Shown here: positions 1,890 through 58,552 of the stretch, piece after piece
Layout: each line of letters starts with the position of its first letter
Position numbering within the stretch: position 1 is the stretch's first letter
From: Candidatus Nomurabacteria bacterium
GTDB lineage: Bacteria > Patescibacteriota > Minisyncoccia > Phycocordibacterales > UBA9973
Direction of reading: 5' to 3'
Assembly (NCBI GenBank): GCA_026395995.1
Contig: JAPLXQ010000010.1
Coordinates: 2,587 to 66,586 of the forward strand
DNA length: 64,000 nt
Program-made: the position numbers and the translations under genes
Notes under the pieces: model-generated
Database searches by the model: none
What the model was told of the DNA's origin: nothing
The model's input: the letters and a program-made list of their open reading frames with translations, nothing else

Positions 1890-1923
1890 CCCCTCCCCAT
1901 TTTTTGCAGAAAATGGGGAGGGG
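1890..1923. terminator. GC-rich perfect hairpin between convergent genes (bidirectional terminator / GC-rich palindromic element)
   Basis: CCCTCCCCATTTTTTGCAGAAAATGGGGAGGG perfect palindrome in AT-rich context, between + gene ending 1860 and - gene ending 2091. Confidence 0.5.
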
Positions 1924-2090
1924 TCAGGGGAGGGGCTAGTTTGTGGGTCCATAAGCTCCTCCAGTGGAGATTGGTGCAGGGGGATTGAGGAATGGCTTGT
2001 TACTATCTTTATTTGGTCCAATTAATAAATACCATACAAACCAAAGTACGATGAAGAATAATATAAGTTCTTTTAGATGATCCATTTTTT

Positions 2091-2993
2091 TTATAAATTA
2101 ATTTGATGATAATTACAGAAGTGCGCACTTCTGCCGTTTACTATTTTTCTTATTATAGCACCACTGCACCCTTTTTTTCTACATTTTTCGCCAGTACGGC
2201 GATAAGCTTCGTGATGAAGCTGGAATGATCCTTTTTGACCATAAATATTCAGGTAGTCCGACATTGAGTCACCACCAAAATTAATTCCTTTTTTTAGTAA
2301 TTCTTGTGTAGCAGAAAAAATTTCTTGAAATTTTTTCTGCGGAATGTTTTTAATGAGTGTTTCAGGATGTAGACCGACTCGCCAAAGGATTTCATCAGAA
2401 TAAATATTGCCAATACCGGCGAGTATGCTCGGATTCATTAAAACTGTTTTAATCTTTCCATTTGGTTTTAAGATTAGACGTTCTTTTAATTTTTGCCAAG
2501 TAAAAGTTTTGTCGAGTGGTTCTGGTCCAATATTTTCTAGATGTTTTGTATTGTTTCGTGTCTCAGTATCGAGTAATGTTATTTTTCCGAATTTTCTGAC
2601 ATCTGAAAAGGCAAGATAGTAACCATTTGATAAAGTAAAAATTACATGAATAAAACGTCCAGTTTTTTGTTTTTGGTAAAATAAGCAGCCGGTCATTTTC
2701 ATGTGAATGAGTATAGTACTTTTTCTCCCCCTGTCTGAGGGGGAGTGGCCAGAGGCCGAGGGGGTGGGAGCAGATAAATTAATCAAAATATTTTTTGCAC
2801 GTCGTTCTACTGACAAGATTTTTTTACCAATAACTTCTTTTTTGAAATAGATAAAATACTTTGGATTTTTTACCGCATCTTTTTGACGCTGATCTTTGCT
2901 ATTTAAATCAGTCCAAACGTCCTTTATTTTGAGCCCTACAATTTCTTTTTGTAGTCCTCTAGTTGTCGTCTCTACTTCTGGTAGCTCAGGCAT
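2091..2993 (-). CDS. mutM: Formamidopyrimidine-DNA glycosylase (Fpg/MutM) with an in-frame GC-rich insertion
   Basis: N-terminal MPELPEVE catalytic Pro/Glu, C-terminal zinc finger CxxC...CxxC; insertion encoding SAPTPSASGHSPSDRGRKS at 2724-2772. Confidence 0.85.
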   Translation of the reverse strand: MPELPEVETTTRGLQKEIVGLKIKDVWTDLNSKDQRQKDAVKNPKYFIYFKKEVIGKKILSVERRAKNILINLSAPTPSASGHSPSDRGRKSTILIHMKMTGCLFYQKQKTGRFIHVIFTLSNGYYLAFSDVRKFGKITLLDTETRNNTKHLENIGPEPLDKTFTWQKLKERLILKPNGKIKTVLMNPSILAGIGNIYSDEILWRVGLHPETLIKNIPQKKFQEIFSATQELLKKGINFGGDSMSDYLNIYGQKGSFQLHHEAYRRTGEKCRKKGCSGAIIRKIVNGRSAHFCNYHQINL

Positions 2994-3018
2994 GCTATGA
3001 TTATACTACATTTAATTT

Positions 3019-3894
3019 ATGACTAAATTTATTAGTACATTTTTAATAGCTTTTATTTGTGCCACACTCGGTGTGGCACCACTTTCTGCTATCGCTAAGA
3101 CTGGTGCAAGTAAGACTCAAGCTGAAGCTATAAAACCTGTACGTATTTTGATAGTTCCAGGGCATGACGATGAAGTCTGGGGTGCTCAATATAAAAATAT
3201 GAAAGAAGCTAGTATGACTTTGGCCTTAGGAACACAGATTTATAATTTATTAAAAAAAGACAAAAGATTTGAAGTTTATATCACACGTAATGGTAATGGA
3301 TACACAAAAGATTTTGCCGATTATTTCACGAATCATATGGATGAAATAAAATCTTTTAAACAGATAGCAAAGACACAAATGGCTGGCCAGCTGGCAGCAG
3401 GATTATTTGTTCAGAAAAAAAATACACCACATGCTTCCGTCAAAGAAATTGTAGCAGATAGACTTTATGGTTTGAATAAGTGGGCGAATGAAAATAATAT
3501 CGATGCGATGATTCATATTCACTTTGATGATTATCCACGTCCTCATGCTTGGACAATAGGTGATTATAAAGGTTTTGCTATTTATATGCCTGAGTCACAA
3601 TTCCCTAATGCAGCAAATAGTGCACTTCTTGCTGGTAATATTTTTGCGCAATTAGAAAAAAAATATATTACTAGTACTTATCCAGAAGAGAAAGGGGGAT
3701 TGATACCAGATCAAAAACTTATTGCCCTAGGAGCCAACGACACACTTTTACCCAGCACTCGTAGTGTCTTGGTAGAATACGGATATATTTATCAAAAAAT
3801 ATTCCGAAATAGCACCACTCGCCATCAGGCTTATAAAACCATGGCTGATCTAACTGTAAAAGGAATTATTAATTATTTCTTCCCGAAGAAGTAA
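3019..3894 (+). CDS. Secreted N-acetylmuramoyl-L-alanine amidase-like (Amidase_3 family) protein
   Basis: Signal peptide; PGHDDE...IHIHFDD...GFAIYMPE blocks resemble Amidase_3 (CwlD-like). Confidence 0.45.
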   Translation: MTKFISTFLIAFICATLGVAPLSAIAKTGASKTQAEAIKPVRILIVPGHDDEVWGAQYKNMKEASMTLALGTQIYNLLKKDKRFEVYITRNGNGYTKDFADYFTNHMDEIKSFKQIAKTQMAGQLAAGLFVQKKNTPHASVKEIVADRLYGLNKWANENNIDAMIHIHFDDYPRPHAWTIGDYKGFAIYMPESQFPNAANSALLAGNIFAQLEKKYITSTYPEEKGGLIPDQKLIALGANDTLLPSTRSVLVEYGYIYQKIFRNSTTRHQAYKTMADLTVKGIINYFFPKK

Positions 3895-3932
3895 GTTTGA
3901 CGTCTTATCTATATAAGTATATTATTGGTGTA

Positions 3933-4112
3933 TGGATGATGACAAAGCAAAAATTAAAGAAGAAATGGAACATATTCAAGGTATTTATGAGCTTTCTTTA
4001 GAAGATTCAAAAAAATATGAAGAAAGAAATAAAAATTTAATAAAAGATTTTAAAAAAGATGATAATAACGAAAAGATAGCAAATATAAGATCAAAATTAT
4101 TAATTTAAATTA
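3933..4112 (+). CDS. Small K/E-rich hypothetical protein (59 aa, below ORF-track cutoff)
   Basis: ATG at 3933 to TAA at 4110; composition similar to downstream 4120-4827 ORF. Confidence 0.2.
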
Positions 4113-4119
4113 AATATAT

Positions 4120-4827
4120 ATGAACGAAAATAAAACAATGGAAGACTCAAAAGAAGAAGCTCTAAAAATTAGAGAAAATACAAAACATACTCAAGAAAAT
4201 TTCCGTGCAATGTCTGCAGAAGATAGAAGTAAAACCGAGAATTTTTATTTCGGTTCTGAAATATATAATTTAAGTGTTGGCGATTTTGAAAAAGTAAAAC
4301 AAGATTCTGTAAATCTGATCCTCGCCAGTGAATCACAGAGTAGAGAAATTCAAGTGAAAAGCTTTAATTCTTTAAAAGAAAAAGGGTATCCTGAAGAAAA
4401 ATTAGGTGATTTAGGGAAAAAACTGGATTCTTCCTATGAAGAATATACAAAGACTATTGCGGGAAGAATCGATGATATTAAAAATATTCAGCTAAAAAGA
4501 GAAGAAAAAATAACTGCCAATTCGGTGGAAAATTCAGAGCATCCTGAAGTTAAAATACACCAAGAAGAAAGAGCTGAATTTAAAGAAAAACTAGCCGATA
4601 TGTTTAATAAAATGGATAATTCTGAAAATACAGATTTATTCTATCAAAGATTAGATGGTGTTTTAGATCAAGCTTCAAAGAATAAAGATTCTGATACATT
4701 GATTTATTTAAGACATCTTTCTAGTGAAAGAATGAATTCTTTAAAAGAAAGCAACAATGAAGAAGAAATAAATAAACTTTATTCATTTAATAAAAAACTT
4801 CAATCTTTTGAGGAACAAATAAAATAA
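4120..4827 (+). CDS. Hypothetical charged/coiled-coil protein
   Basis: ORF track; no recognisable motif. Confidence 0.4.
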   Translation: MNENKTMEDSKEEALKIRENTKHTQENFRAMSAEDRSKTENFYFGSEIYNLSVGDFEKVKQDSVNLILASESQSREIQVKSFNSLKEKGYPEEKLGDLGKKLDSSYEEYTKTIAGRIDDIKNIQLKREEKITANSVENSEHPEVKIHQEERAEFKEKLADMFNKMDNSENTDLFYQRLDGVLDQASKNKDSDTLIYLRHLSSERMNSLKESNNEEEINKLYSFNKKLQSFEEQIK

Positions 4828-4897
4828 AAATTATTTCCCTCCTAAATTCTTAAACGCTTCTTTTATTTTTGCATTAGTGTCGACAGCAGTGACATTT

Positions 4898-5656
4898 GAA
4901 TTACAAGGTCGAACCTTGTAAAAACTTTATTATATTGTTATCATGCATATATGACTAGAAGTATAGAATTTTCTATTGGTGAATTTTATCATCTCTATAA
5001 TAGAGGTACTGAAAAGAGAATCATTTTTAATAATAAAAATGATTATGAAAGATTCACTCTTCTTCTATATTTATGTAATAGCCTGAACAAAGTAGATTTA
5101 GGTGACTACCTAAGACAAGGTCGAACCTTGTTAGAACTTTTTGATTTAGAAAGAAATAACACCTTGGTTGATATCGGTGCATATTGTTTAATGCCAAATC
5201 ATTTCCATATTTTAGTTAAGGAAAAATTAGAGGGAGGAATTAGTTTATTTATGCAAAAACTAACAACAGCATATACTATGTATTTTAATAAAAAATATAA
5301 TCGTACAGGTACCTTATTTCAAGGGAAATTTAAAGGCAAACATGTAATAGGTTACAATTATTTAAAATATTTATTTGCATATATTGGATTAAACCCTATT
5401 AAATTAATAGATAAAAATTGGAAAGAAAATGGAATAAAAAATTTATTGGAAGCAAAAAACTTTTTAAGTAAATATGAATTTTCTAGTTTTGTAGATTTTT
5501 GTGATATATCAAGAAAACAAAAAGTTATTTTAGTGCTGGATAATTTTCCAAAATACTTTCTTTCTAAAAAAGAATTTAATGATTTTATAAATGACTGGTT
5601 GGATTATAGAGAACTAGAATTTTAGTATTTTTTATTTTCCACCAAGAATTTTTAAT
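4898..5656 (+). mobile_element. Insertion carrying a RAYT/IS200-like HUH transposase, bounded by a 42-bp exact (ca. 65-bp degenerate) direct repeat that duplicates the ruvA 3' end
   Basis: Repeat gcttcttttatttttgcattagtgtcgacagcagtgacattt at 4856-4897 and 5657-5698; subterminal hairpin acaaggtcgaaccttgt at 4905-4921. Confidence 0.6.
4951..5625 (+). CDS. HUH (Y1) tyrosine transposase, IS200/IS605 TnpA / REP-associated tyrosine transposase (RAYT)-like
   Basis: YHLYNRG...LMPNHFHILV (HuH) ...YIGLNPIK (cf. RayT DYIYINPVKHG); paralog of 21346-22011. Confidence 0.7.
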   Translation: MTRSIEFSIGEFYHLYNRGTEKRIIFNNKNDYERFTLLLYLCNSLNKVDLGDYLRQGRTLLELFDLERNNTLVDIGAYCLMPNHFHILVKEKLEGGISLFMQKLTTAYTMYFNKKYNRTGTLFQGKFKGKHVIGYNYLKYLFAYIGLNPIKLIDKNWKENGIKNLLEAKNFLSKYEFSSFVDFCDISRKQKVILVLDNFPKYFLSKKEFNDFINDWLDYRELEF

Positions 5657-6204
5657 GCTTCTTTTATTTTTGCATTAGTGTCGACAGCAGTGACATTTTT
5701 CAATGCATCACGAGCTTCATTTTGAGAGTAGCCGAGAGATTTGAGGGCTTCGAGTGCATCCATTTCTTCTTTGAGTGCTCCACCTGTCTTTTCATCTTTA
5801 AATTTGTCTCGAAGTTCGATGACAATTTTTTCGGCGGTTTTTCTACCAATACCAGAAATTTTTGTGAGATAAGAAATATCATTTGTACCGATGGCTTGGC
5901 GGAGAGTCTCAATAGAAGCGACACTCAAAATACCCAAAGCTCCTTTTGGTCCAATACCTGAGACACTGATCAGCATTTCAAAAAATTCCAATTCTTCTCT
6001 GTCGAGGAAACCATAAAGATCGAGGGCGTCTTCGCGGACGATGGTGTGAATCCAAAGAAAGATTTCATCAGACCTCACCCCCTGCCCCCTCTCCTGAAAG
6101 GAGAGGGGTTTATGGATATGTATCTTATAACCGACCCCGTTTGCTTCCACAATAATGAATTTGTCTGTTTTGAGTATTGTTTTGCCTTTTATGCTTCCAA
6201 TCAT
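5632..6204 (-). CDS. ruvA: Holliday junction DNA helicase RuvA, with in-frame GC-rich insertion
   Basis: MIGSIKGK...ANGVGYKI N-terminus, HhH motifs GIGPKGALGIL / GIGRKTAEKI; insertion at 6071-6111 (QERGQGVRS). Confidence 0.85.
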   Translation of the reverse strand: MIGSIKGKTILKTDKFIIVEANGVGYKIHIHKPLSFQERGQGVRSDEIFLWIHTIVREDALDLYGFLDREELEFFEMLISVSGIGPKGALGILSVASIETLRQAIGTNDISYLTKISGIGRKTAEKIVIELRDKFKDEKTGGALKEEMDALEALKSLGYSQNEARDALKNVTAVDTNAKIKEALKILGGK

Positions 6205-6311
6205 GATTTTAGTATAACATATTTATTTTCTCCCACTTTATAAGGGGGGGGTGGCTGAAAGCCGAGGGGGTCATTTGCATTTTTTCTATATTTCTGTTAT
6301 GTTATACGTAT

Positions 6312-6563
6312 ATGCCAATAACAAAATCAGCTGAAAAAGCAATGCGTGGATCCCTTCGAAAGAAGGCTATTAATGACCGCCGAAAACGTGCCGTTAAAGA
6401 AGAAATTAAAAAGATATTAAAAGTTGTAAAGACTGATAAAACATCTATAGTAAAAATGCTTCCAACTGCTTTTCAAGCAATTGATAAAGCTGCTAAGAGT
6501 GGAGTTATCAAGAAAAATACTGCAGCTCGCAGAAAATCTCGTTTAGCAAGATTAACAAAATAA
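6312..6563 (+). CDS. rpsT: 30S ribosomal protein S20
   Basis: MPITKSAEKAMRGSLRKKAINDRRKRAVK typical S20. Confidence 0.85.
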   Translation: MPITKSAEKAMRGSLRKKAINDRRKRAVKEEIKKILKVVKTDKTSIVKMLPTAFQAIDKAAKSGVIKKNTAARRKSRLARLTK

Positions 6564-6565
6564 AT

Positions 6566-6596
6566 AAAAAAAGAAGTCGAAAGACTTCTTTTTTTA
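6566..6596 (+). terminator. Rho-independent terminator after rpsT
   Basis: gaagtcgaaagacttc hairpin followed by T-run. Confidence 0.6.
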
Positions 6597-6611
6597 TTGT
6601 ATAATGGACGT

Positions 6612-6893: not shown

Positions 6894-6936
6894 TTTTTCC
6901 TTTCAATTTATCTAAAAATAAGCTAGTATAGGCCTT

Positions 6937-8412
6937 ATGTCAGCAGAAACAATCGTTCGATTCGATCAAGTGTTTTTTGAACACAGTATAAACAAACCAA
7001 TCCTCGAAGAGGTCTCTTTTTCTATTCGTCGTGGTTCAAAATTTACTTTGATGGGCCAGAATGGTGCCGGTAAAAGTACAATCTTTTCTTTAATCACTGG
7101 CGAGAAAAAACCAGAAGAGGGAATCATTAATGTTATGAATGGTGTGACGATAGCCTTGTCTAGGCAGGTTATTCCACGAGCTGATTTGGAACTCACAGTG
7201 AGAGAATTTTTTGAAAAATGTTTCGCTAAAAAGGTTTATGATATCGATGTAAAAATTGATGATATTTTGGAAGTGGTAAATTTGAAAGGTCATGAGAAAG
7301 TTCACGATCGAATAATCAAAACTTTTTCTGGTGGGCAACAAGCACGTTTACTCTTGGCCAGTGCACTTATTCAAAGTCCAGATTTACTTTTGCTTGATGA
7401 GCCGACAAACAATCTCGATAAGGCTGGTATTGCACACCTGACAGAATTTCTACGAAACTACAAAAAAACAGTCATCGTCATTTCCCACGATGCGGAATTC
7501 CTGAATGCTTTTACTGAAGGAGTTTTTTATTTAGATATTCATACGCGAAAAGTGGAGCAATATGTCGGTAACTATTTCAACGTGGTGAAAGATATCAAAG
7601 CTCGTATTGAAAGAGAAAATATGAAAAATGCTCAACTTGAAAAAACTATTCAAGCCAAGAAAGACCAAGCCAATGTCTTCGCTCACAAAGGGGGACGTCT
7701 ACGTCTCGTAGCTCGTCGTATGCGTGAACTCGCTGAAGATTTGGAAGAAGACATTGTGGATGTCCGCAAAGAAGATAAGGCTATTCGTCCATTTATTATC
7801 CCTGCCCAGCAAGATATGATCGGAGAGATAATAAACATTTCTGCTTACACTACGCTCAATCCAAAAACTCATAAAATAGTAAAACATAAAGCTCATATTT
7901 CTTTAAATAAAAATCAGCACTTGCTTTTGAAAGGTCCAAATGGAATTGGAAAAAGTACATTACTGGAAAGCTTGGCTAGTGGCCATGCCGAAGGTACAAA
8001 TATTAAAGAGGGAATCCGTATCGGATATTATCGCCAAGATTTTTCTACTTTGAATTTTGATCACACTGTCTATGAATCTTTGGCTTCAGCGATGGCTATC
8101 GGTGGAGAACGCCTTGATGAAGAGCGTATGCGCTCGATAGCTGCGAGTTTTCAAATTACTGGAGAATTTATCCGTACAAAAATCGGCAGTCTGTCTGAGG
8201 GGCAAAAAGGTCTCGTCGCCTTTGCTCGTCTCGTAATGGAAAAACCAGGGCTCCTCATTCTCGACGAGCCGACAAACCATATCAACTTCCGTCATTTGCC
8301 TGTAATTGCAAAAGCTCTCGATGAATACAAAGGCGCGATGATCCTCGTATCTCACGTTCAAGAATTCGTAGACCAAATTAGGATAGATGAAATTTTAGAT
8401 TTGGAGAAATAG
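6937..8412 (+). CDS. ABC-F family ATPase (tandem ABC domains, no TMD)
   Basis: Two Walker A (GQNGAGKST, GPNGIGKST), two signature motifs (SGGQQARLLLA, SEGQKGLVAFA), Walker B LLLDEPTN/LILDEPTN. Confidence 0.8.
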   Translation: MSAETIVRFDQVFFEHSINKPILEEVSFSIRRGSKFTLMGQNGAGKSTIFSLITGEKKPEEGIINVMNGVTIALSRQVIPRADLELTVREFFEKCFAKKVYDIDVKIDDILEVVNLKGHEKVHDRIIKTFSGGQQARLLLASALIQSPDLLLLDEPTNNLDKAGIAHLTEFLRNYKKTVIVISHDAEFLNAFTEGVFYLDIHTRKVEQYVGNYFNVVKDIKARIERENMKNAQLEKTIQAKKDQANVFAHKGGRLRLVARRMRELAEDLEEDIVDVRKEDKAIRPFIIPAQQDMIGEIINISAYTTLNPKTHKIVKHKAHISLNKNQHLLLKGPNGIGKSTLLESLASGHAEGTNIKEGIRIGYYRQDFSTLNFDHTVYESLASAMAIGGERLDEERMRSIAASFQITGEFIRTKIGSLSEGQKGLVAFARLVMEKPGLLILDEPTNHINFRHLPVIAKALDEYKGAMILVSHVQEFVDQIRIDEILDLEK

Positions 8413-8413
8413 A

Positions 8414-8500
8414 TACAACCCCCTAAATCCCCCTTATCAAGGGGACTTTGAATGCTAAGCATTTTACCTTCCCTGATAAGGGGAGGTTAGGAGAGGTTGT
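8414..8500. repeat. Nested GC-rich imperfect palindrome (MITE/REP-like element)
   Basis: Arms acaaccccctaaatcccccttatcaagggg / ccttccctgataaggggaggttaggagaggttgt around inner palindrome gaatgctaagcatt. Confidence 0.55.
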
Positions 8501-8684
8501 ATTTAAACCTTATTTTACAAGAAATTATATCTATTGACTTTTAATATTAATTATGATATACTTTCATTATAGGTTATTCTACTTCCTTAATTAGTAGATA
8601 TGGTGAGAATAGACAAACTCACTTAATGGCACTAAGCAATCAAATAATCTCGGCGTCGCACGTTGCGGTAAAATACATTGAAAA

Positions 8685-9125
8685 ATGAATAGTACATTAA
8701 ACAATCTAGCACTACTTTCTTTTAATAGAAAAGCTAGGAAAATCAGTAAAGACATTGGGGTAATAAATTGCATGGACGTGTTTTTTATACCATATTGTGT
8801 AATTCGTGCAGGTGAAACTTTATTTATTTGGAGTGAGGAGAATGGTTTTCATTCAGTCCTTACTGAAAATGATAAAGAACTTGCATATCTGGTAGATTTT
8901 CCAGAAAAATACGGTTACGATGAAGTTTACCATTTTGGGATTTTGAATGCTGACAAGACAACTCTTTCTATTTTTCGTTGTTATGACCAGCTTACTCACA
9001 AGAAAGAAGTGTTGCCTTATGGTTTACAATTCCACACTGATGAGTATAGAAAAGAGCGAGATTTCGAACTTCAACAAGAAAGCGAACTTCCATTTATGCA
9101 ACAAGGTCAAGGTTCCAGATTGTAA
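8685..9125 (+). CDS. Hypothetical protein
   Basis: ORF track; followed by hairpin terminator 9131-9175. Confidence 0.3.
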   Translation: MNSTLNNLALLSFNRKARKISKDIGVINCMDVFFIPYCVIRAGETLFIWSEENGFHSVLTENDKELAYLVDFPEKYGYDEVYHFGILNADKTTLSIFRCYDQLTHKKEVLPYGLQFHTDEYRKERDFELQQESELPFMQQGQGSRL

Positions 9126-9244
9126 TCATCAAACCCACCAGTAGAAAATCTACTTCGGTGGGTTTTCTGTTTTTGCATAAGAATTATATCTAGAAAAGTA
9201 AATTTATTTTGAAAAAAAGTATTTTTAAACTATAATAACTTTCT

Positions 9245-14363: not shown

Positions 14364-15014
14364 TTATTCATACCTTGGAGCTTCTTCGACAATACCAGCG
14401 ACGTGGTTTGAGGCGCGGGCGAAGGCGTAGAGGACGGATGAGAGGCGGTTTAGGTATGCGAGGGTTTGGGGGTTGACGGATTTTTCCCCTCCTTGTGGAG
14501 GAGGGGTGTCTCGGTAATCCGAGACGGGGTGGTGATTCTGGTTTTGATTTTCGGGGGTGGCGATTCTATTTTTCTGCTCTTCCGCGACGCCGACTACTCG
14601 GCGTTCGGCACGGCGGGCGATAGTGCGAGCGATGTCGCAAAGAGATGCGAGCTCTGTACCACCAGACACGAAGAAAGTTTTAATCGGTGGAAGCATTTTT
14701 TCAATGCCGTCGATAATTTCTTCGAGCCATTTTACTTTTTCTTCTACAATTGTTTTATCTGCACCGGCGAGTTCGGCCTGAATTATAAAAAGGTCTTGCT
14801 GAATTCTATCGATAGTTTCAGCAAGTTTTATTTCTCCAGTATCCAAAGTAAAAGCCACCTTTAAAGTGGCGGCTTTTACTTTTACCAAACCTAGAAAAGA
14901 ATTTATTTCATCCATCGAGCCGAGAGCTTCGGCTATCGCACTACTTTTTGATATACGTTGATCGCATCCAAAAGTTTTAGTTGTTCCATTGTCTCCTTTT
15001 CTGGTATATAGCAT
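14364..15014 (-). CDS. PduO-type ATP:cob(I)alamin adenosyltransferase with GC-rich in-frame insertion
   Basis: MLYTRKGDNGTT N-terminus typical of PduO/MMAB family; conserved RRAER and YLNRLS blocks flank inserted segment (~14468-14585). Confidence 0.8.
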   Translation of the reverse strand: MLYTRKGDNGTTKTFGCDQRISKSSAIAEALGSMDEINSFLGLVKVKAATLKVAFTLDTGEIKLAETIDRIQQDLFIIQAELAGADKTIVEEKVKWLEEIIDGIEKMLPPIKTFFVSGGTELASLCDIARTIARRAERRVVGVAEEQKNRIATPENQNQNHHPVSDYRDTPPPQGGEKSVNPQTLAYLNRLSSVLYAFARASNHVAGIVEEAPRYE

Positions 15015-21235: not shown

Positions 21236-21283
21236 ATAAAACCTTATTGGGCAAAATACTCAATAAGGTTTTTATTTTGTGCA

Positions 21284-22038
21284 AAACCGCATGAGGGTAG
21301 TCCTCATGCGGTTTTCATTAATATTGAATGTGATATACTTTTAACATGGAACGAAAAGTAAAATTTTCAATAAATGAATATTACCATTTGTACAGTCGAG
21401 GTGTTGAAAAAAGAAAAGTTTTTCTTGACCCAAAAGACCACAAAAGATTTATGGCACTTCTATATATAATGAACAATTCTGAACCTTTTACTTTTGGTAA
21501 TTTTTTAAAACATAATAAGATTGAAGATATTTTCTCTAAAGAAAAAGAAAAAACACTAGTTTCTATTGTAAGTTATACTCTTATGCCAAACCATTTTCAT
21601 TTATTGGTCTATGAAAATGAAGAAGGAGGAATAAGTAAATTTATGAGTCGATTGCTGACTGCGTATTCGATGTATTTTAATACTAAATATAAAAGAAGTG
21701 GTCCTTTATTTGTGCACCCATTTCGTTCTGAACATATTTCAAATGAGTCACAGTATTTATGGATTTTTTCATACATCCATTTAAATCCTATTGGAATTAT
21801 AAAAAAAGACTTTAAAACCAAAGGATTCGGTAATAAAAAAATAGCTCAAAATTTTTTAAAATTATATCAATACTCTAGTTATTATGAATACGAAGGTGGT
21901 AATCGTATTGAATCAAAAATCCTTGACCTTTCTTTGGTACCAGAATATTTACCAAAAATCTCTTTTGATGTTGGAAAATATGAAAAATGGTTTAAAACAG
22001 AAGAAGAGTAACCGCATGAGGGTAGTCCTCATGCGGTT
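21284..22038 (+). mobile_element. RAYT/IS200-like HUH transposase gene bracketed by identical 28-bp hairpin repeats
   Basis: aaccgcatgagggtagtcctcatgcggtt at 21285-21313 and 22010-22038 (palindromic ccgcatgagg/cctcatgcgg). Confidence 0.65.
21346..22011 (+). CDS. HUH (Y1) tyrosine transposase, IS200/IS605 TnpA / RAYT-like (paralog)
   Basis: YHLYSRG...LMPNHFHLLV...SYIHLNPIG; ~45% identical to 4951-5625 product. Confidence 0.7.
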   Translation: MERKVKFSINEYYHLYSRGVEKRKVFLDPKDHKRFMALLYIMNNSEPFTFGNFLKHNKIEDIFSKEKEKTLVSIVSYTLMPNHFHLLVYENEEGGISKFMSRLLTAYSMYFNTKYKRSGPLFVHPFRSEHISNESQYLWIFSYIHLNPIGIIKKDFKTKGFGNKKIAQNFLKLYQYSSYYEYEGGNRIESKILDLSLVPEYLPKISFDVGKYEKWFKTEEE

Positions 22039-22061
22039 AAGAAATATGTTAATATGAATAT

Positions 22062-30249: not shown

Positions 30250-30524
30250 AAGATTTTTGTTATTTTTAATCCTATGAGTAGAAATCAAAAATCCCACCAC
30301 ATAGGTGAGAGCTTTCGCTCTCTGCATCCGTTTCCAGATACAGCTCGTCAAAGCATCCCTATATGATGGGGTTTCTAGCTTTGACGAGACTTTCGGCCAT
30401 GTCTTTATTTCTAAAGGGTTAGGCCACTTATATATTAAATTGTATGTTTATGATAACATATTTATATCTCTTATTGAATTAACTATTTACTTTAAGTCGG
30501 GGATACACCGCTTATTGAATATCA

Positions 30525-33457: not shown

Positions 33458-34294
33458 ATGAAAAAAAAGATATCAGTCTTATATTCAAACAAAGACATTT
33501 TGGTCATAAATAAACCAGCGGGGATTTCGGTCCACGGTGACGGTAGGAGCGATGTGGAAACTTTAGCAGATTTGATATTGGCGGAATATCCAGAGATGAA
33601 AGACGTAGGTGAACCGATGGAAATAGATATCGGTGGTGGTGAGAAGAAAATTATATATCGTCCTGGAATAGTACACAGACTCGACAAAGATACGAGTGGA
33701 GTTCTTATCTTGGCTCGCAATCAAAAAGCTTATGAATATTTAAAAGAGCAATTTCAAAATAGGGAAGTGAAGAAAACTTATAATACTCTCGTCTATGGAA
33801 ATATGAAAAATGATTTTGGTATTGTGGATGCTGGTATCGGACGTAGTCCGAGTGATCCTAGAAAGAGAATTGCTTCACGTGGTAAGACTGGCAAGATTCG
33901 TGACGCAGTAACTGAATATAAAGTTTTGAAAAGAATTTCAGTCGGGAAAAGGTCGGACCTTAAGAATTCAAAAAGGTCCGACCTTGAGGGGACTGGAATT
34001 CAAGCACCTCACCCCAGCCCTCTCCTTAGCGAAGGAGAGGGAGAAGAAAAATTCACTTGGCTCGAAGTTAAACCAAAAACAGGACGCACACACCAGATCC
34101 GCGTGCATATGAAATTCCTAAATCATCCTGTCGTAGCGGACCAATTATATACTCCAAAGGACGCCACAACACCTTTTGGCATCTCCCGCCTAGCACTTCA
34201 TGCTTCATCTATTGAATTTAAAAACCTCAAAGGGGAAACCATCAAAATAGAAGCCCCACTACCGGAAGATTTGGAAAAAATACTTGAAAAATAA
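33458..34294 (+). CDS. RluA-family 23S rRNA/tRNA pseudouridine synthase with in-frame palindromic-repeat insertions
   Basis: HRLDKDTSGVLILARN catalytic motif; insertion at 33947-34044 encoding VGKRSDLKNSKRSDLEGTGIQAPHPSPLLSEGEGEE. Confidence 0.8.
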   Translation: MKKKISVLYSNKDILVINKPAGISVHGDGRSDVETLADLILAEYPEMKDVGEPMEIDIGGGEKKIIYRPGIVHRLDKDTSGVLILARNQKAYEYLKEQFQNREVKKTYNTLVYGNMKNDFGIVDAGIGRSPSDPRKRIASRGKTGKIRDAVTEYKVLKRISVGKRSDLKNSKRSDLEGTGIQAPHPSPLLSEGEGEEKFTWLEVKPKTGRTHQIRVHMKFLNHPVVADQLYTPKDATTPFGISRLALHASSIEFKNLKGETIKIEAPLPEDLEKILEK

Positions 34295-36964: not shown

Positions 36965-37046
36965 GCACGAGTGGCGGAACTGGTATACGCGTACGATTGA
37001 GGTTCGTATGGAGCAATCCTTGGAGGTTCAAGTCCTCTCTCGTGCA
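36965..37046 (+). tRNA. tRNA-Leu (anticodon GAG), type II
   Basis: Acceptor GCACGAG/CTCGTGC, anticodon stem-loop TACGA TTGAGGT TCGTA, variable arm, T-loop TTCAAGT. Confidence 0.75.
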
Positions 37047-37056
37047 CAACAAATAT

Positions 37057-37602
37057 ATGATTTTTCTTTATATTGTAATTTTGATTCTGTTTCTTTTTAT
37101 TTTATTTCTTTTTACTTCTTTTTTGACCCCGCTTTTTTCCAAGGTACCTTTTGTACCAGTGAGGGGGAGAATCGTAGATGAAATAATTGCAGCATTAGAA
37201 TTGAAAGACGATAGTGTTCTTTATGATCTTGGTTGTGGGGATGGTAGAGTGCTTTTTGCTGGAGTAAAAGATTTTCCAAATAGGAGCGCGCTCGGTATCG
37301 AGCGCGCTCCATTCCCATACCTTTGTGCAAAAATTAGAAAAGTCTTTTCTAAGACAAAAAATGTTTCTATTGTTTACGGTGATTTTTTTAAATTAGATTT
37401 TTCTCCGGCGACCCATATTTTTATTTATCTTTTTCCTAGTATTCTCGATGAGCTTTTACCAAGATTCGAAAAAGAATTAAAACAGGGGACTAGATTAGTG
37501 TCTTGCGATTTTCAATTTTCAAAAAGAAAACCAGATGAAGTAATAAAAACAAAATCAAAAGACTGGCAAACAAATCACACTATCTACGTTTATTACTTTT
37601 AA
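37057..37602 (+). CDS. Class I SAM-dependent methyltransferase with N-terminal TM anchor
   Basis: Motif I LYDLGCGDGRVL; start chosen downstream of tRNA-Leu. Confidence 0.6.
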   Translation: MIFLYIVILILFLFILFLFTSFLTPLFSKVPFVPVRGRIVDEIIAALELKDDSVLYDLGCGDGRVLFAGVKDFPNRSALGIERAPFPYLCAKIRKVFSKTKNVSIVYGDFFKLDFSPATHIFIYLFPSILDELLPRFEKELKQGTRLVSCDFQFSKRKPDEVIKTKSKDWQTNHTIYVYYF

Positions 37603-53104: not shown

Positions 53105-53168
53105 ATTTGACACTATTGTTATAGGTAGTATTATTAGCTTATTACTCAATTAAATAATATAAAAACAT

Positions 53169-53414: not shown

Positions 53415-53552
53415 GAAAAAAGAGTGGCATTGAGTCACTCTTTTTAGTCTAAAAATCCTGCTTTGCAAGCGGGATTTTTTTCATATATAATCAATCTGTG
53501 ATTTAATGAGCTCCAAAACTTTATTACTATTTAACTTTTAACTATTTTTACT

Positions 53553-54725
53553 ATGAAAGATACACAAATAAAAAAATTAATAACAGCAGAAGGTAAAAGA
53601 CAGAAAAGTGTTATTAATTTAATCGCCTCAGAAAATTATGTTTCCAAAGATGTTTTAGCGGCTCTCGGTTCAGTCCTTACAAATAAATATGCAGAAGGGT
53701 ATCCAGGACGAAGATATTATGGAGGAAATGAAATTATTGATAAAGTAGAAACTCTAGCTATCGATCGTGCGTTAAAACTTTTTAAATTAAAACCAGACGC
53801 ATGGCATGTGAATGTTCAGCTCCTTTCTGGAAGTCCTGCGAATTTTGCATTGTATTCTGCTCTCGTACCTATCGGTGGAAAAATAATGGGAATGAAATTA
53901 ACTTCTGGTGGACATCTCACACACGGACATCCACTTTCTATGACAGGTAAACTTTGGAAACCGATTCAATTCGAACTCGACCCAAAAACAGAAGTCATCG
54001 ATTATGATGCAATTGAAAAATTAGCAATACAAGAAAAGCCAGATATTATCGTCGCTGGTTTTACCGCATATCCACGCGTTGTTGATTTTAAAAAGTTTAG
54101 ATCTATCGCTGACAAATGCGGAGCATTATTACATATCGATATGTCTCACTTTGCAGGACTTGTCGCAGGGGGAGTGTATCCATCTCCATTTCCATATGCA
54201 GACAGTGTGATGACTACTACTCACAAATCTCTCCGTGGTCCGAGACAAGCAATTCTTTTTGTAAAAAAAGATGAACGTGGTTTTGATAAAAAATTAGATA
54301 AGATGGTAATACCTGGACTCTTTGGTGGTCCACATGAAAACAATATTGCCGGAGTTGCGATAGCACTCAAAGAAGCTGACACTCCAGCCTTTAAAAAATA
54401 CGCAAAACAAGTTATTAAAAATGCGCAAACATTAGCAAAAGAATTACAACGTTTAGGCTGGAAAATAGTTTCTGGTGGCACTGATTCACACTTGATATTG
54501 ATGGATACTTTTTCTTCAAATGGTGTTACAGGTAGTGATGCTAGTAAAAAGCTTGAAAAAGCAGGGATAATAGTAAATATGAATACTGTTCCAGGGGACA
54601 CACGTTCTGTTATGGATCCATCTGGTATTCGCCTAGGTACTTGTGCAGAAACAACAATAGGTAAAAAAGAAAAAGATATGATTAAAATAGCACAGAAGAT
54701 GGATAAAGTATTAAGAGGTAAATAA
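53553..54725 (+). CDS. glyA: Serine hydroxymethyltransferase
   Basis: NLIASENYVSKDVLAALGSVLTNKYAEGYPGRRYYGGNE. Confidence 0.9.
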   Translation: MKDTQIKKLITAEGKRQKSVINLIASENYVSKDVLAALGSVLTNKYAEGYPGRRYYGGNEIIDKVETLAIDRALKLFKLKPDAWHVNVQLLSGSPANFALYSALVPIGGKIMGMKLTSGGHLTHGHPLSMTGKLWKPIQFELDPKTEVIDYDAIEKLAIQEKPDIIVAGFTAYPRVVDFKKFRSIADKCGALLHIDMSHFAGLVAGGVYPSPFPYADSVMTTTHKSLRGPRQAILFVKKDERGFDKKLDKMVIPGLFGGPHENNIAGVAIALKEADTPAFKKYAKQVIKNAQTLAKELQRLGWKIVSGGTDSHLILMDTFSSNGVTGSDASKKLEKAGIIVNMNTVPGDTRSVMDPSGIRLGTCAETTIGKKEKDMIKIAQKMDKVLRGK

Positions 54726-54728
54726 TTT

Positions 54729-55139
54729 ATGAAGATATTTATCTGCACAAGTAAACATTTATATAATCAGATTCCTCCTATAAAAGAATCTCTTGAAAAA
54801 AGTGGTCACATTATAACTTTACCAAATAGTCTTGATAATCCTTTGAAAGAGCAAGAAATGAAAACAGTAGGAACAGCAGAACATTCAAAATGGAAAGGAG
54901 AGATGCTTCGACTTCAAAAAGAAAAAGTTAACATGAATGATGCAATTTTAGTTTTAAATTTTGAAAAGAACGGACAGGCGAATTATATTGGAGGAGCTAC
55001 ATTTTTAGAAATTTACATGGCTTTTGAATTAGGTAAAAAGATATTTTTGTATAATCCAATTCCAGAAAGCTTTTTAAAAGATGAATTGCTGGGGATGAAC
55101 CCTTTTATTATTAATGGTGATTTAAGTTTAATAAAATAA
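54729..55139 (+). CDS. Possible nucleoside 2-deoxyribosyltransferase-like (flavodoxin-fold) protein
   Basis: MKIFICTS start, size and context; weak. Confidence 0.3.
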   Translation: MKIFICTSKHLYNQIPPIKESLEKSGHIITLPNSLDNPLKEQEMKTVGTAEHSKWKGEMLRLQKEKVNMNDAILVLNFEKNGQANYIGGATFLEIYMAFELGKKIFLYNPIPESFLKDELLGMNPFIINGDLSLIK

Positions 55140-55143
55140 TTTT

Positions 55144-55833
55144 ATGAAAAAAGGAAAATTAATTGTAATAGACGGTACGGACGGAAGTGGAAAGGCGACA
55201 CAGGTAGAATTACTTCGTTTACGTTTAGTAAAAGAAGGCTATAAAGTAAAGACTGTAGATTTCCCGGAATACTATAAAAATTTCTTCGGCAACTTTATTG
55301 GTCACTGTTTGAGTGAGCAATATTTTAATTTTGTGAAAGTTCATCCTAAAATAGCTTCTGTCTTATATGCAGCCGATCGTTGGGAATCATCTGATCAAAT
55401 TGATGGGTGGTTGAAATCTGGGTGCATAGTTATTGCCAATAGATATGTTTCAGCTAATCAAATTCACCAGGGTGGAAAAATAACAAATGCTAAAAAAAGA
55501 AAAGACTTTTTACGTTGGCTGGATGATATGGAATATAGGGTTTTCGGTATACCGAGACCAGATGTAGTAATTTATTTGGAGGTTCCAATCAAGGTTACCC
55601 AAAAATTAATGATTGAACGTGATGCAAAAAACGCTAGACAGTATTTAAAGAAAAAGGGAGATGTTCACGAAAATGACCCAGTCTTTTTGGAAAATTCACG
55701 TAAGAGTGCATTGAAACTTATCAAAGAATTAAATAACTTTATAAAAATTTCTTGCGTAAAAGGTTTTAATATGAGAGCTAGAGAAGATATTCATGAAGAT
55801 GTATATTTAGAAATTAAAAAAGTTTTAAAATAA
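55144..55833 (+). CDS. Thymidylate kinase-like (d)NMP kinase
   Basis: P-loop LIVIDGTDGSGKATQ, DRY-like ANRYVSANQIHQG. Confidence 0.6.
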   Translation: MKKGKLIVIDGTDGSGKATQVELLRLRLVKEGYKVKTVDFPEYYKNFFGNFIGHCLSEQYFNFVKVHPKIASVLYAADRWESSDQIDGWLKSGCIVIANRYVSANQIHQGGKITNAKKRKDFLRWLDDMEYRVFGIPRPDVVIYLEVPIKVTQKLMIERDAKNARQYLKKKGDVHENDPVFLENSRKSALKLIKELNNFIKISCVKGFNMRAREDIHEDVYLEIKKVLK

Positions 55834-55834
55834 T

Positions 55835-56245
55835 ATGAAAATATATTTTGCAGGATCAATACGAGGAGGAAGAGATGACAAAGATATTTATGCTGATATT
55901 ATTTCTTTACTGAAAAAATATGGCCCAGTACTGAGTGAACATATAGGCGACAAAAATCTTTCAAGTCAAGGTCAAACGTCAATGACGAATGAACAAATTT
56001 ATCAGAAAGATGTTAATTGGATTAATGAATCTGATATTATCATTGCTGAAGTTACAAACCCATCACTTGGTGTTGGTTATGAATTAGGCCTTGCTGAATC
56101 TCTTAAAAAGAAAATTATTGCCTTATACAGAGTAGTAGACGGTAAAAGGCTTTCCGCAATGGTAGCAGGAAATAGTAATATTACTTGTATAGAATATACC
56201 GAAGTTTCTGAATTAGATAAAATATTTGAAGAAATTTTTAAATAA
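55835..56245 (+). CDS. 2'-deoxynucleoside 5'-phosphate N-hydrolase (DNPH1/Rcl) / nucleoside 2-deoxyribosyltransferase family
   Basis: MKIYFAGSIRGGR N-terminus characteristic of DNPH1; ...EVTNPSLGVGYELGLAE. Confidence 0.65.
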   Translation: MKIYFAGSIRGGRDDKDIYADIISLLKKYGPVLSEHIGDKNLSSQGQTSMTNEQIYQKDVNWINESDIIIAEVTNPSLGVGYELGLAESLKKKIIALYRVVDGKRLSAMVAGNSNITCIEYTEVSELDKIFEEIFK

Positions 56246-56254
56246 TATTTATCG

Positions 56255-56285
56255 CTTAAAAAGCCCGAGTTATCTCGGGTTTTTA
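56255..56285 (+). terminator. Rho-independent terminator
   Basis: aaaagcccgagttatctcgggttttt. Confidence 0.6.
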
Positions 56286-56299
56286 TTTTTCTTATAATT

Positions 56300-56737
56300 A
56301 TGTACAATGAAAACATGCAGTTTAAGATCAAAAAATTGAAAGAAGGTGCGAAATTACCTAGTTATGCAAACCCGGGGGATGTGGGTATGGATTTGTATTC
56401 TATGGAAAATGTTACTTTGGCTCCTATGGAACATACTATTTTAAATCATGGTTTTGCTTTAGAATTCCCTGAAGGATACGGAGGTTTTGTTATGGACAAG
56501 GGAAGTATTTCAAAAGCAGGGCTCAAAGTTATGGGTGGGGTATATGATGCAGGGTATAGAGGCGAATACAATACACATCTGGTTAATTTGTCTGATAAAT
56601 CATATACTATCGAAGTAGGAGATAAAGTTTCTCAACTAGTCATCACTCCTGTCGTAATAGGCGAGATAGAGGAGGTGAATGAACTTTCAGAATCTGTTCG
56701 CGGAGAGGGTAGATATGGTTCAACTGGTAGAAAATAA
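56300..56737 (+). CDS. dut: dUTP diphosphatase
   Basis: dUTPase motifs PGDVGMDL, GGFVMDKGSISK, RGEGRYGSTG. Confidence 0.85.
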   Translation: MYNENMQFKIKKLKEGAKLPSYANPGDVGMDLYSMENVTLAPMEHTILNHGFALEFPEGYGGFVMDKGSISKAGLKVMGGVYDAGYRGEYNTHLVNLSDKSYTIEVGDKVSQLVITPVVIGEIEEVNELSESVRGEGRYGSTGRK

Positions 56738-56800
56738 GATCTCACCCCCAACCCCTCTCCTTATAAAGGAGAGGGGCGCCGGGATGGAATACACAATATA

Positions 56801-58552
56801 ATGAAACAAAAAATAATAAATTTAATAAAAGATGCTTTGAATAAACTCGAAATAGGTGAGGTGAATTTTGTCGTGGAACATCCAGAAGATTTCAAGAATG
56901 GAGACTATTCTACGAACGTAGCGATGGTTTGTGCGAAGCAATTGAAAATGAATCCACGTGAACTTGCAGAAAAAATTTCTGCAGAAATTATGAAGCACCC
57001 CCTCCGGCTTTCAGTCACCTCCCCCTTAGCTAAGGGGGAGGGCTGGGGTGGGGGTGTTGAAAAAATAGAAGTCGCCGGCGCAGGGTTTATAAATTTCTAT
57101 ATTTCAAAAGAATATTTTCAAAAAGAATTAGCAAATATAATAACTTTAGCTGATAAATACGGATCCTCAGATTTAAATAAAGGAAAGAAAATTTTAGTTG
57201 AACATTCTAGTCCGAATTTATTTAAGCCATTTCACGTCGGGCATATGATGAATAATGCTATCGGTGAATCTATTACTCGACTCGCACATTTTTCTGGTGC
57301 GGAAGTAAAAGCTATTTCTTTCCCGTCTGATATTTCTCTCGGAGTAGCTAAAGCAATTTTTATAATTTTAGAAAAACAAATTGATGGTGAGGTTTTTAAA
57401 CCAGTAGATATCGTTGCATTAGGTGATGCTTATGTAGAAGGCACGAAGAGATATGATGAAGATGAATCTATCCATGCTCGTGTAAAAGAAATTGCTGATA
57501 ATCTATACTCTGAAAAAGACTCTCCAGAATTCAGCGCTTTTGTCGCTTGTAAAGAATTCAATATGGAATATTTTAAAAATATTACAAAACGTCTCGGTTC
57601 AGAATTTGATGGATATATTTACGAGAGTGAGGCTGGTATCATAGGTAAAAAAATGGTTTTAGAAAATACTCCTGCTATTTTTACCGAGAGTGAAGGCGCC
57701 GTCGTTTATATTCCAGAAGAAACAAAAAAATACATCAATACTGCCGTGTTTATAAACAGTCAAGGCAATCCTACTTATGAAGCGAAAGACCTCGGCCTTC
57801 TCGATTTAAAATTTGAAAAATATAATCCAGACCTTTCTATTTTTATTACAGACCATCAACAGATTTCTCATTTCGCTGTCGTTCTCGATGCTGTAGAAAA
57901 AATAAATAAAAGCTGGGTAGAGAGAAGTGTTCACCGAACACATGGACGTATGACATTCAAAGGACAAAAAATGTCTTCACGTCTCGGGGGAGTTCCACTC
58001 GTTGCTGATATTTTAGAGACAGTCCTTGCTGAAGTTTCTGAACGTACAAAAGACAGAGATACAGTAGACACACGTGAGAATCCAGAAGCTATCGCTGTCG
58101 GCGCACTAAAGTTCGCTATTCTCCGTGCTCAAGCAGGGAAAAATATCGACTTTGATCCAGATACTTCACTTTCATTCGAAGGGGATTCAGGTCCGTATTT
58201 ACAATACACTGGTGTCCGTGCAAATTCTGTACTAGCGAAGGCACCCCTCCTCAATCCTCCCCTTGGCAAATGGGAGGAAGGACTCAATAATTTAGAAATC
58301 ACCGATGTAGAAAAAATACTTGCTCGTTTTCCGGAAGTCGTCGAAAATTCTATCACTAATTGGGCTCCACATTATGTCACGACATATTTATGTGAATTAG
58401 CGCAATCATTCAACAGCTGGTATGCACATACTCAAATTATCGATGAAGCTAATCCAAATATGAATTACAATTTAGCTATCACTAAATCAGTTGCTCAAGT
58501 AATGCAAAACGGCCTTTGGCTTCTCGGCATTGAACTTCCAGAGAGAATGTAA
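56801..58552 (+). CDS. argS: Arginine--tRNA ligase with in-frame GC-rich insertion(s)
   Basis: HSSPNLFKPFHVGHMMN (HIGH), DALR anticodon-binding C-terminus; insertion 56997-57056. Confidence 0.9.
   Translation: MKQKIINLIKDALNKLEIGEVNFVVEHPEDFKNGDYSTNVAMVCAKQLKMNPRELAEKISAEIMKHPLRLSVTSPLAKGEGWGGGVEKIEVAGAGFINFYISKEYFQKELANIITLADKYGSSDLNKGKKILVEHSSPNLFKPFHVGHMMNNAIGESITRLAHFSGAEVKAISFPSDISLGVAKAIFIILEKQIDGEVFKPVDIVALGDAYVEGTKRYDEDESIHARVKEIADNLYSEKDSPEFSAFVACKEFNMEYFKNITKRLGSEFDGYIYESEAGIIGKKMVLENTPAIFTESEGAVVYIPEETKKYINTAVFINSQGNPTYEAKDLGLLDLKFEKYNPDLSIFITDHQQISHFAVVLDAVEKINKSWVERSVHRTHGRMTFKGQKMSSRLGGVPLVADILETVLAEVSERTKDRDTVDTRENPEAIAVGALKFAILRAQAGKNIDFDPDTSLSFEGDSGPYLQYTGVRANSVLAKAPLLNPPLGKWEEGLNNLEITDVEKILARFPEVVENSITNWAPHYVTTYLCELAQSFNSWYAHTQIIDEANPNMNYNLAITKSVAQVMQNGLWLLGIELPERM

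Follow-up and report, generated by a model that had tools for sequence, protein, structure and literature searches.

A stretch of 64,000 nt from a Candidatus Nomurabacteria genome (Patescibacteria, within the candidate phyla radiation, CPR; GC 33.7%, 88% coding), referred to below as the window, carries short GC-rich elements at ten sites, six of them inside genes. Homologs of its ArgS and transposase also assign the window to Patescibacteria, within Paceibacteria / Candidatus Nomurabacteria. Judged by their blocks and layout, these elements are members of the pan-bacterial Box C / PIT / triplex motif (TM) family, a known family met here in a new setting; TM is used below as shorthand for the three-block GC-rich unit that they share. 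It is probable that they are Box C / PIT / TMECO-type repeats behaving as selfish, unstable DNA, with a derivation from the ends of cassettes encoding a DUF559 endonuclease as a step that we infer.

Three-block architecture of the elements

A sequence-only reading of the window had proposed ten GC-rich hairpin sites of related sequence in a genome that it took to be about 30% GC, a figure somewhat below the measured one. Inspection of each site and a stem scan against shuffled sequence showed that a GC-rich hairpin was present at all ten, at the positions proposed or a few bases off. Perfect GC-rich stems of at least 7 bp gave 29 matches at about 12 loci, as compared with 0-2 in each of 20 shuffles. 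A stricter scan for the three-block layout, in which a pyrimidine block is followed by its purine complement and then by a purine mirror block (G.G, A.A or T.A), detected 9 units spread over 8 of the listed loci, and 20 shuffles gave none, indicating that the elements form a single family in both sequence and structure, as had been supposed. The tenfold list included one copy in argS, at 58242-58284, only as a possibility, and a short TM was indeed found there (58245-58278).

When the copies were aligned, the G-rich strand showed a unit in which loop 1 separates a pyrimidine block from its purine complement and loop 2 separates that complement from a further purine block, which mirrors the first purine block except that A may become T. 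It is a compound unit and not a simple palindrome. The architecture with G.G-C, A.A-T and T.A-T is present at those 8 loci; at site 1890 the layout was recognized by eye as a double unit with its second unit on the other strand, the scan having passed over it because loop 1 is 16 nt long, and at site 6243 the pyrimidine block is degenerate. The right half of 8414-8500 is likewise a degenerate second copy. Units are 34-59 nt long with a GC content of 58-73%, as against 34% in the gene background, and their density is 9-10 per 64 kb, or about 150 per Mb. The length of loop 2 was 2-5 nt in six readings, the other readings giving 7-19 nt. It takes the form of a mini-hairpin of 12-19 nt in the copies of fpg, the PduO-type gene and argS site 1 and in the copy at 6243. 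Accordingly, gtggcYgaRaggccgagggggt, listed earlier as a core of its own, is really the loop-2 mini-hairpin plus the third (mirror) block of one TM unit.

Several elements fold far better than shuffled sequence as single-stranded DNA (z -3.4 to -6.1). The element at site 1890 had been read as a terminator, and this was not borne out: the terminator and promoter scan of the window called no TM, and no element scored terminator-like because a T tail is lacking throughout. At gathering threshold, Rfam models run over the window and ten motif-bearing loci gave no family spanning the elements, the only matches being tRNAs, LOOT and C4 RNAs.

The same motif in almost every bacterial phylum

We searched one-genome-per-species bacterial genomes with a compound motif of 24 fixed bases, CTCACCCC-N2-6-CCCTCTCC-N3-10-GGAGAGGG. 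Exact matches were found in at least 120 stretches from almost every bacterial phylum, where we estimate that about 2 would be expected by chance; among the matches listed are Planctomycetota, Chloroflexota, Pseudomonas, Xanthomonas, Enterobacter, Bacteroidota, Cyanobacteria, Verrucomicrobia, Acidobacteria and others. The layout corresponds to the Box C / PIT / TMECO G/C-rich intrastrand triplex motif described by Holder et al. 2015 (PMC4666352, citing Hoyne/Maher 2000), with the pattern CCCTCNCCC N3-6 GGGNGAGGG N3 GGGNGAGGG, from which the window blocks CCCCTCTCC / GGAGAGGGG / GGGGGTGAGG are 1-2 bases off. That study reported 23 TMECO copies in E. coli K-12, intergenic without exception, 3610 copies across 262 proteobacterial genomes, and plentiful related G/C-rich motifs in cyanobacteria. 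It further reported a triplex that is stable in vitro and undetected in vivo, hypervariable loci, and neither promoter nor terminator activity for PIT elements in E. coli (PMC4666352). With the compound motif spread over phyla and the architecture being that of TMECO, the proposal of a new or CPR-specific family, or of an RPE (Rickettsia palindromic element), did not survive.

Copies inside genes are not confined to the window. Among the low-GC motif matches listed (n = 29), 8 at 7 loci lie inside open reading frames (ORFs) of 285-773 aa, which we read by eye as AlaRS, Dus, NuoM-like, HsdR-like and other proteins; the low-GC genomes with in-frame copies lie outside CPR, two being named as Bacteroidota. 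In the searchable literature, which leaves most subscription journals outside it, we found no account of palindromic elements in CPR genomes and none of TMs in coding regions, in keeping with the earlier impression that such elements had not been described for CPR. TMs were also seen in regular tandem arrays, with a spacing of about 151 bp in Pseudomonas crudilactis (L011, 421-754) and of about 78 bp in a Bacteroidales genome (L019, 61-250); the same 8-kb stretch of L011 holds C4 antisense RNA genes elsewhere.

Copies inside conserved genes

Six of the ten copies lie within intact ORFs and four in the non-coding 12% of the window, a distribution consistent with selection removing most genic insertions. 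The host genes are fpg (2091-2993), ruvA (5632-6204) and a PduO-type adenosyltransferase gene (14364-15014) on the - strand, and rluA (33458-34294) and argS (56801-58552) on the + strand. Since all five host ORFs are intact, every intragenic TM is in frame, as the sequence-only reading had stated. Its further statement that every genic copy adds a peptide held for four copies. Specifically, the fpg copy is a clean addition of 16 aa between aligned blocks in comparison with MutM structures; rluA is about 36 aa longer than RluD/RluC structures, its insert consisting of the TM and another hairpin (33949-33985); the PduO-type protein exceeds its PDB homologs by about 36 aa; and argS site 1 adds about 15 aa to a loop of 8 aa in most of 120 orthologs. 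On the other hand, ruvA gains only about 4 aa relative to the ortholog loop and argS site 2 only about 2 aa, indicating that native codons, about 8 in ruvA, were replaced.

The peptides encoded by TMs have a high content of Pro, Gly, Ser, Glu, Arg and Leu. No frame of a homopurine or homopyrimidine block can hold a stop codon, so that only the loops can close a frame. In an AlphaFold model of ArgS (mean pLDDT, the predicted local confidence score, 84.7), residues 69-83 at site 1 are coil with pLDDT <50 between helix 52-64 and strand 86-92, and site 2 is coil with pLDDT 56-66. No recorded protein was identical in sequence to the window ArgS. The ArgS insert is therefore predicted by the model to be a disordered surface loop, and together with the fpg insert, which falls between aligned blocks, this agrees with the placement in loops suggested before. 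Note that two ArgS orthologs, P0006 and P0038, carry a different insert (TPGVGTSFTPGVEF / TPGVGALFTPGVG) in the loop matching window residues 63-86, so this loop accepts several element types.

Gain and loss among relatives

A close relative, GCA_943350065.1 (L001), is syntenic with positions 53553-64000 of the window (about 11 kb) at 91-97% identity, and it lacks all three TMs of the shared region. In the dut-argS spacer a 56-bp block (56741-56796) is cleanly missing from L001; at argS site 1 the comparison shows an insertion plus a replaced patch, and at argS site 2 L001 has a different, REPIN-like hairpin. The TMs are thus recent and polymorphic, and the hypervariability between close strains that characterizes TMECO loci is seen here too, with three TMs gone and adjacent sequence replaced. 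The argS site 1 segment is also missing from orthologs at 90, 84, 77 and 74% identity.

The same loop is occupied in more distant relatives too. TM-type peptides (SPLLAGEGSGVRF and similar) were found in it in about 11 of 120 ArgS orthologs, others having them at further sites, and ArgS-loop TMs were confirmed in the DNA of two Paceibacteria, L209 and L210. L210 has the same double TM subtype as the window at the same argS position, and L209 has 7 TMs in 21.8 kb, while four other 20-kb Patescibacteria loci have none. The behavior described for RPEs, that is, recent and polymorphic copies in frame in loops of conserved genes, was accordingly recovered; the RPE analogy is fair for behavior and wrong for identity and lineage restriction.

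Other differences in these relatives were recorded along the way. L001 has a 717-bp insertion (8091-8807, at window position 62560) between the genes 62166-62561 and 62561-63076, which is not in the window; it overlaps a 146-aa ORF without a Pfam match (8093-8533) and holds an 84-aa GIY-YIG ORF (8550-8804). Insertions of 24 and 17 nt in L001 (578-601 and 10034-10050; window positions 54115 and 63786) share GGTTTACC(C)TG and a short hairpin, and the 17-nt one, which is not a multiple of three, falls in a GC-rich patch (window 63768-63810) of a DUF1905 gene. In L209 (13949-17464) and L210 (12107-15721), argS adjoins a gene for a class I tRNA synthetase of about 1170-1200 aa, in which a His_Phos_1 domain is listed between two tRNA-synt_1 matches.

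Association with DUF559 endonuclease genes

Among the at least 120 motif-selected loci, inverted TM pairs 450-520 bp apart always bracket a DUF559 ORF in the matches listed (L041, L079, L054, L022 and L006), and single TMs adjoin one in L003 and L018. The DUF559 ORFs at TM loci match PF04480 with E values of 1e-30 to 1e-34, and DUF559 is grouped together with Vsr and I-Bth0305I, a homing endonuclease of a group I intron (PMC3424549). For a reciprocal test, 80 metagenome loci were picked by DUF559 protein similarity alone, using a four-sequence alignment as query. A strict TM was present within 250 bp upstream of DUF559 in 43 and downstream in 38 of these 80 loci, and 31 had TMs on both sides on opposite strands. 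The far flanks held 19 TMs in 144 kb (0.13 per kb), compared with roughly 2-2.5 per kb by our own estimate near the DUF559 ORF. One low-GC DUF559 locus (L153) has neighbors that show no sign of CPR origin.

Whole TM-DUF559-TM cassettes also occur in frame in genes: in LeuRS of a Cytophagales genome (L041, 5682-8000), in MetRS of two betaproteobacteria (L022, 1777-4515; L006, 2-2161), where they separate the anticodon-binding domain from the tRNA-binding domain, and in Hymenobacter (L079, 3815-5407) as a fusion following a GATase_5 domain. In E. coli K-12, a TM-like hairpin runs across the stop codon at the 3' end of ycjD, which is annotated as DUF559, and TMECO no. 9 lies about 170 bp past ycjD, after the remnant of another DUF559 3' end. 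The association is strong and apparently unreported, no paper linking DUF559 or YcjD to TM repeats having been found in the literature searched; it could explain the origin of the TM family, and the DUF559 endonuclease bracketed by TMs in other bacteria may be their mover. As for the K-12 locus itself, the TM-ycjD segment next to fabI (L124) is missing in about 2,080 of 5,426 E. coli genomes; in O157:H7 (L211, one genome inspected) the fabI-sapF interval has genes for a TetR regulator and an RND (efflux) pump and is not an empty site.

Individual copies in the window

The spacer in which the SpoU methylase gene and fpg converge holds, at 1866-1935, a double (palindromic) TM on both strands, recognized by eye. 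Its + strand reads CCCCTCCCC, a 16-nt loop, GGGGAGGGG, TCA and GGGGAGGGG again, and on the - strand the mirror block GGGGTGGGG (complement of 1866-1874) follows a 15-nt loop 2; the stem is 14 bp, the DNA fold has z = -4.96, and there is no T tail. The three-block scan placed the fpg copy at 2725-2765 on the + strand (CTCCCCCT gtctg AGGGGGAG tggccagaggcc GAGGGGGT, loop 2 being a 12-nt mini-hairpin) and the ruvA copy at 6072-6108 on the - strand (CCCCTCTCCT ttc AGGAGAGGGG gcag GGGGTGAGGT), which encodes KPLSFQERGQGVRS. In the divergent spacer between ruvA and rpsT, the degenerate TM at 6230-6270 (+ strand, TCTCCC..GGGGGGGG tggctgaaagcc GAGGGGGT) has a decayed pyrimidine block and was not called by the strict scan. 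The spacer after the ABC-F gene holds two short TMs in inverted orientation that enclose nothing (8417-8497), of which the left unit, on the - strand, was found by the scan (CCCCTT gat AAGGGG gatttag GGGGTT) and the right one is degenerate; they form a long inverted repeat with a fold z of -6.13 and six of six frames closed.

The remaining copies were all located by the three-block scan. In the PduO-type gene the TM lies at 14486-14533 on the + strand (CCCCTCCT tgtgg AGGAGGGG tgtctcggtaatccgagac GGGGTGGT), with a 7-bp hairpin as loop 2 and a fold z of -5.41. The rluA copy (34006-34041, - strand) reads CCCTCTCCTT cgct AAGGAGAGGG ctg GGGTGAGGT and encodes PHPSPLLSEGEG, and the copy in the dut-argS spacer (56741-56776, - strand) reads CCCCTCTCCTT tat AAGGAGAGGGG ttg GGGGTGAG. 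Site 1 of argS (56997-57055) is a double TM readable on both strands, the - strand being CCTCCCCCTT agct AAGGGGGAGG tgactgaaagcc GGAGGGGGT; it encodes HPLRLSVTSPLAKGEGWGGG, and SPLAKGEGWGGG is an example of an ArgS peptide that would span the insert. Site 2 (58245-58278, - strand) is a short TM, TCCTCCC atttgccaag GGGAGGA ttg AGGAGGG. Three of the elements, 1866-1935, 8417-8497 and 56997-57055, are inverted TM pairs without an ORF between them.

A second hairpin family and a Y1 transposase gene

The window also has a gene for a Y1 (IS200-like / RAYT-like) transposase at 4951-5625 on the + strand (PF01797, E 3.7e-8, 34 bits, cutoff 23). Its product is 100% identical to a Ca. Nomurabacteria protein and has 7042 homologs, being very abundant in Patescibacteria; the NCBI RAYT model NF047646 scored below cutoff on it, and a PDB sequence search with it gave no match. 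Direct repeats of 67 nt flank the gene (4831-4897 and 5632-5698, 88% identical), and the second of them is the ruvA 3' end. From this arrangement, it appears that a Y1 unit of about 800 bp went into the 3' end of ruvA, which was duplicated or restored in the process.

A REP-like hairpin of repeat family D3, ACAAGGTCGAACCTTGT, lies upstream of the Y1 gene (4903-4919), with a second copy inside it (5115-5131). Related elements are a REPIN-like inverted doublet in frame in rluA beside the TM (33949-33985; AAGGTCGGACCTT, 11 nt and AAGGTCCGACCTT, with a perfect 13-bp stem) and four tandem REP-like units at 61509-61606 on the + strand (AAAGGTCGGTCCTT, AAAGGACCAACCTT, AAAGGTCGTTCCTT and CAAGGTGCGACCTT), in frame near the 3' end of the ORF 58638-61739. 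The pattern of this second family, AAGGTCGRACCTT, had 13 matches against 0.75 expected, and a related hairpin stands at ArgS site 2 in L001 (about 3770-3820). In four orthologous Y1 loci of 20 kb each, Y1 is flanked by ACAAGGT..ACCTTGT hairpins and there is no strict TM; Y1 therefore goes with the REP-like family and not with the TMs. Thus, the Y1 gene is a candidate mobilizer of the second family, and the two together look like a REP/REPIN-RAYT system in Patescibacteria, of which the literature searched gave no prior account.

Several further structures in the window are separate observations. A perfect 12-bp GC-rich hairpin unrelated to TMs (GGAGCGCGCTCG gtat CGAGCGCGCTCC, 37283-37310) lies downstream of tRNA-Leu (36965-37047), and two intergenic hairpins with a common 13-14-bp stem and loop (AACCGCATGAGG gtagt CCTCATGCGGTT; 21283-21315 and 22009-22039) are repeated and terminator-like. 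A LOOT RNA (RF03000) is encoded on the - strand at 30307-30425 (88 bits, gathering score 46.4). Perfect hairpins within ORFs at 60167-60200 (15-bp stem, GGCAGCGATTTTGCT) and 62674-62704 (10-bp stem, GACGCCCAAG) are common to the window and L001, with no indel.

Discussion

In the explanation that we favor, a TM unit could form a hairpin and, when single-stranded, also a purine-motif intrastrand triplex. TMs would act as selfish, unstable DNA that is gained and lost between close relatives, often with replacement of adjoining sequence. With 88% of the genome coding, genes receive many of the copies; those that survive would be the ones in spacers or in frame in surface loops, where they may simply be translated as linkers, probably disordered. 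The TMs may be the terminal inverted repeats of a cassette of about 0.5 kb that encodes a DUF559 (Vsr / I-Bth0305I-like PD-(D/E)XK) endonuclease. Solo and paired TMs would then be non-autonomous remnants, either spread through endonuclease-triggered break-and-copy or left after deletion of the ORF. A wider claim, which we put forward tentatively and as plausible rather than likely, is that TMs are the structured ends of a pan-bacterial selfish DUF559 cassette of about 0.5 kb, and that the cassette and its solo ends insert in frame in essential genes (ArgS, LeuRS, MetRS, Fpg, RuvA and others), where translation turns them into linkers or an embedded nuclease domain. If this is true, the cassette occupies an intein-like niche without splicing.

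Several observations weigh against this explanation. No DUF559 ORF was found in the 64-kb window, L001, L209 or L210 by tblastn with eight DUF559 proteins, so that a mobilizer in this lineage is putative and the DUF559 link is inferential for this genome. At the one clean indel, in the comparison with L001, there is neither a target-site duplication nor a fixed insertion sequence. The ArgS element is 69% identical between the window and L210, with flanks of 50% and, on the right, 69%, and distant lineages could share this site because an ancestral copy was retained in some and lost several times in others, and not because insertion recurred. Open frames average about 3.6 of 6 per copy as against 2.9 in random segments, which is a modest excess, and the strict TMECO spacing (loop 2 of 3 nt) is kept in only about half of the copies. 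Holder et al. saw no mobile-element association and no stable triplex in vivo (PMC4666352).

The view of the sequence-only reading, a CPR-specific palindromic family analogous to RPEs and specialized in in-frame insertion, accounts for in-frame copies in five conserved genes, for presence and absence between close relatives, for recurrent copies in Paceibacteria ArgS orthologs and for the frequency of the loop-2-hairpin variant in the clade. It is nevertheless improbable, since lineage restriction is already contradicted: the compound motif matches a family published for E. coli and is shared by Proteobacteria, Bacteroidota, Chloroflexota, Planctomycetota, Cyanobacteria and others, and long loop-2 variants are found outside CPR too, beside DUF559. 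Furthermore, units of 34-59 nt are far shorter than RPEs, which are about 100-150 bp long and restricted to Rickettsia. We also think it unlikely that TMs are REP/REPIN-type elements moved by the Y1 (RAYT-like) transposase. RAYTs act on hairpins, the TMs at 6072 and 6230 begin about 450-620 bp away from this gene (4951-5625), and its family abounds in Patescibacteria; however, it is a different hairpin family, ACAAGGT-nnn-ACCTTGT, that flanks the gene and its four orthologs, whose 20-kb loci have no strict TM, and the RAYT model scored below cutoff.

A host function, such as termination, mRNA stabilization, replication pausing or regulated recombination, with the likeness across phyla arising by convergence through triplex or hairpin chemistry, would suit the strong folding of several copies (z -3.4 to -6.1), the intergenic copies at gene ends, and the in vitro triplex and hypervariable flanks that have been reported (PMC4666352). 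We give it little credence, because T tails are lacking, PIT elements had no promoter or terminator activity in E. coli, and convergence leaves unexplained the conserved unpaired details (CTCACCCC-NN-CCCTCTCC), the bracketing of one ORF family and the presence/absence polymorphism. Least credible is that the segments are ancestral parts of the host proteins and not insertions. The ruvA and argS site 2 segments, which add almost no length, could be read in this way, but at four of the six sites it is contradicted: the ArgS site 1 segment is missing from orthologs at 74-90% identity, and MutM, RluD and PduO-type homolog structures lack the fpg, rluA and pduO segments, all of this in DNA of 58-73% GC set in a 34% GC gene background.

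Few short repeats of bacteria are as widespread as Box C / PIT / TM repeats, which have had no accepted origin or mechanism since the 1990s. The window shows them at very high density in a reduced CPR genome, with translated inserts tolerated in essential enzymes, which affects gene calling, ortholog alignment and structure prediction in CPR. Outward from the window, TMs consistently bracket one endonuclease family, which makes the question of their mover testable, and TM sites amount to a natural list of loops in essential proteins where insertions are permitted.

Among known systems, Box C / PIT / TMECO is matched in the three-block layout with near-identical blocks (CCCTCTCC / GGAGAGGG / GGGGTGAGG), in the many copies, often as inverted pairs, and in hypervariability between close strains. 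The window elements differ in that six of ten are translated in frame, whereas the E. coli copies are intergenic; in that loop 2 is a mini-hairpin of 12-19 nt in about half of the copies instead of 3 nt; in a density of about 150 per Mb against about 5 per Mb in K-12 (23 copies in 4.64 Mb, our calculation); and in their host, a 34% GC Patescibacteria genome. RPEs are similar in being selfish palindromic repeats whose in-frame insertion into conserved genes adds translated surface segments and leaves function intact, but descriptions of their length and host set them apart from TMs, which are 34-59 nt long, three-block and pan-bacterial, here in a Patescibacteria host.

REP/REPIN-RAYT systems likewise consist of short GC-rich hairpins, single or as inverted doublets, whose repeat brackets a dedicated enzyme gene. 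The second family of the window (AAGGTCGRACCTT with Y1, 4951-5625) fits this description, although REPs are classically extragenic and the REPIN-like doublet here is in frame in rluA; TMs, in contrast, do not flank Y1 here or in the four orthologous loci, and the enzyme that they bracket elsewhere is a PD-(D/E)XK DUF559 protein and not Y1. Of the two hallmarks of miniature inverted-repeat transposable elements, terminal inverted repeats and a target-site duplication, the window offers inverted TM pairs that enclose no ORF, and no target-site duplication was seen at the one clean indel. GC clusters, or double-hairpin elements, of AT-rich, gene-dense fungal mitochondrial genomes are comparable GC-rich palindromic mini-elements, sometimes inside coding regions, but they have other hosts and sequences and no three-block mirror architecture. 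Finally, the DUF559 cassette is like homing endonuclease genes and inteins, I-Bth0305I included, in being a small endonuclease ORF in essential genes (aminoacyl-tRNA synthetases) at the same site across lineages; it differs from them in lacking the splicing machinery of introns and inteins, in being apparently translated through together with its TM ends, and in having structured inverted repeats as its ends around an ORF whose nuclease activity is putative.

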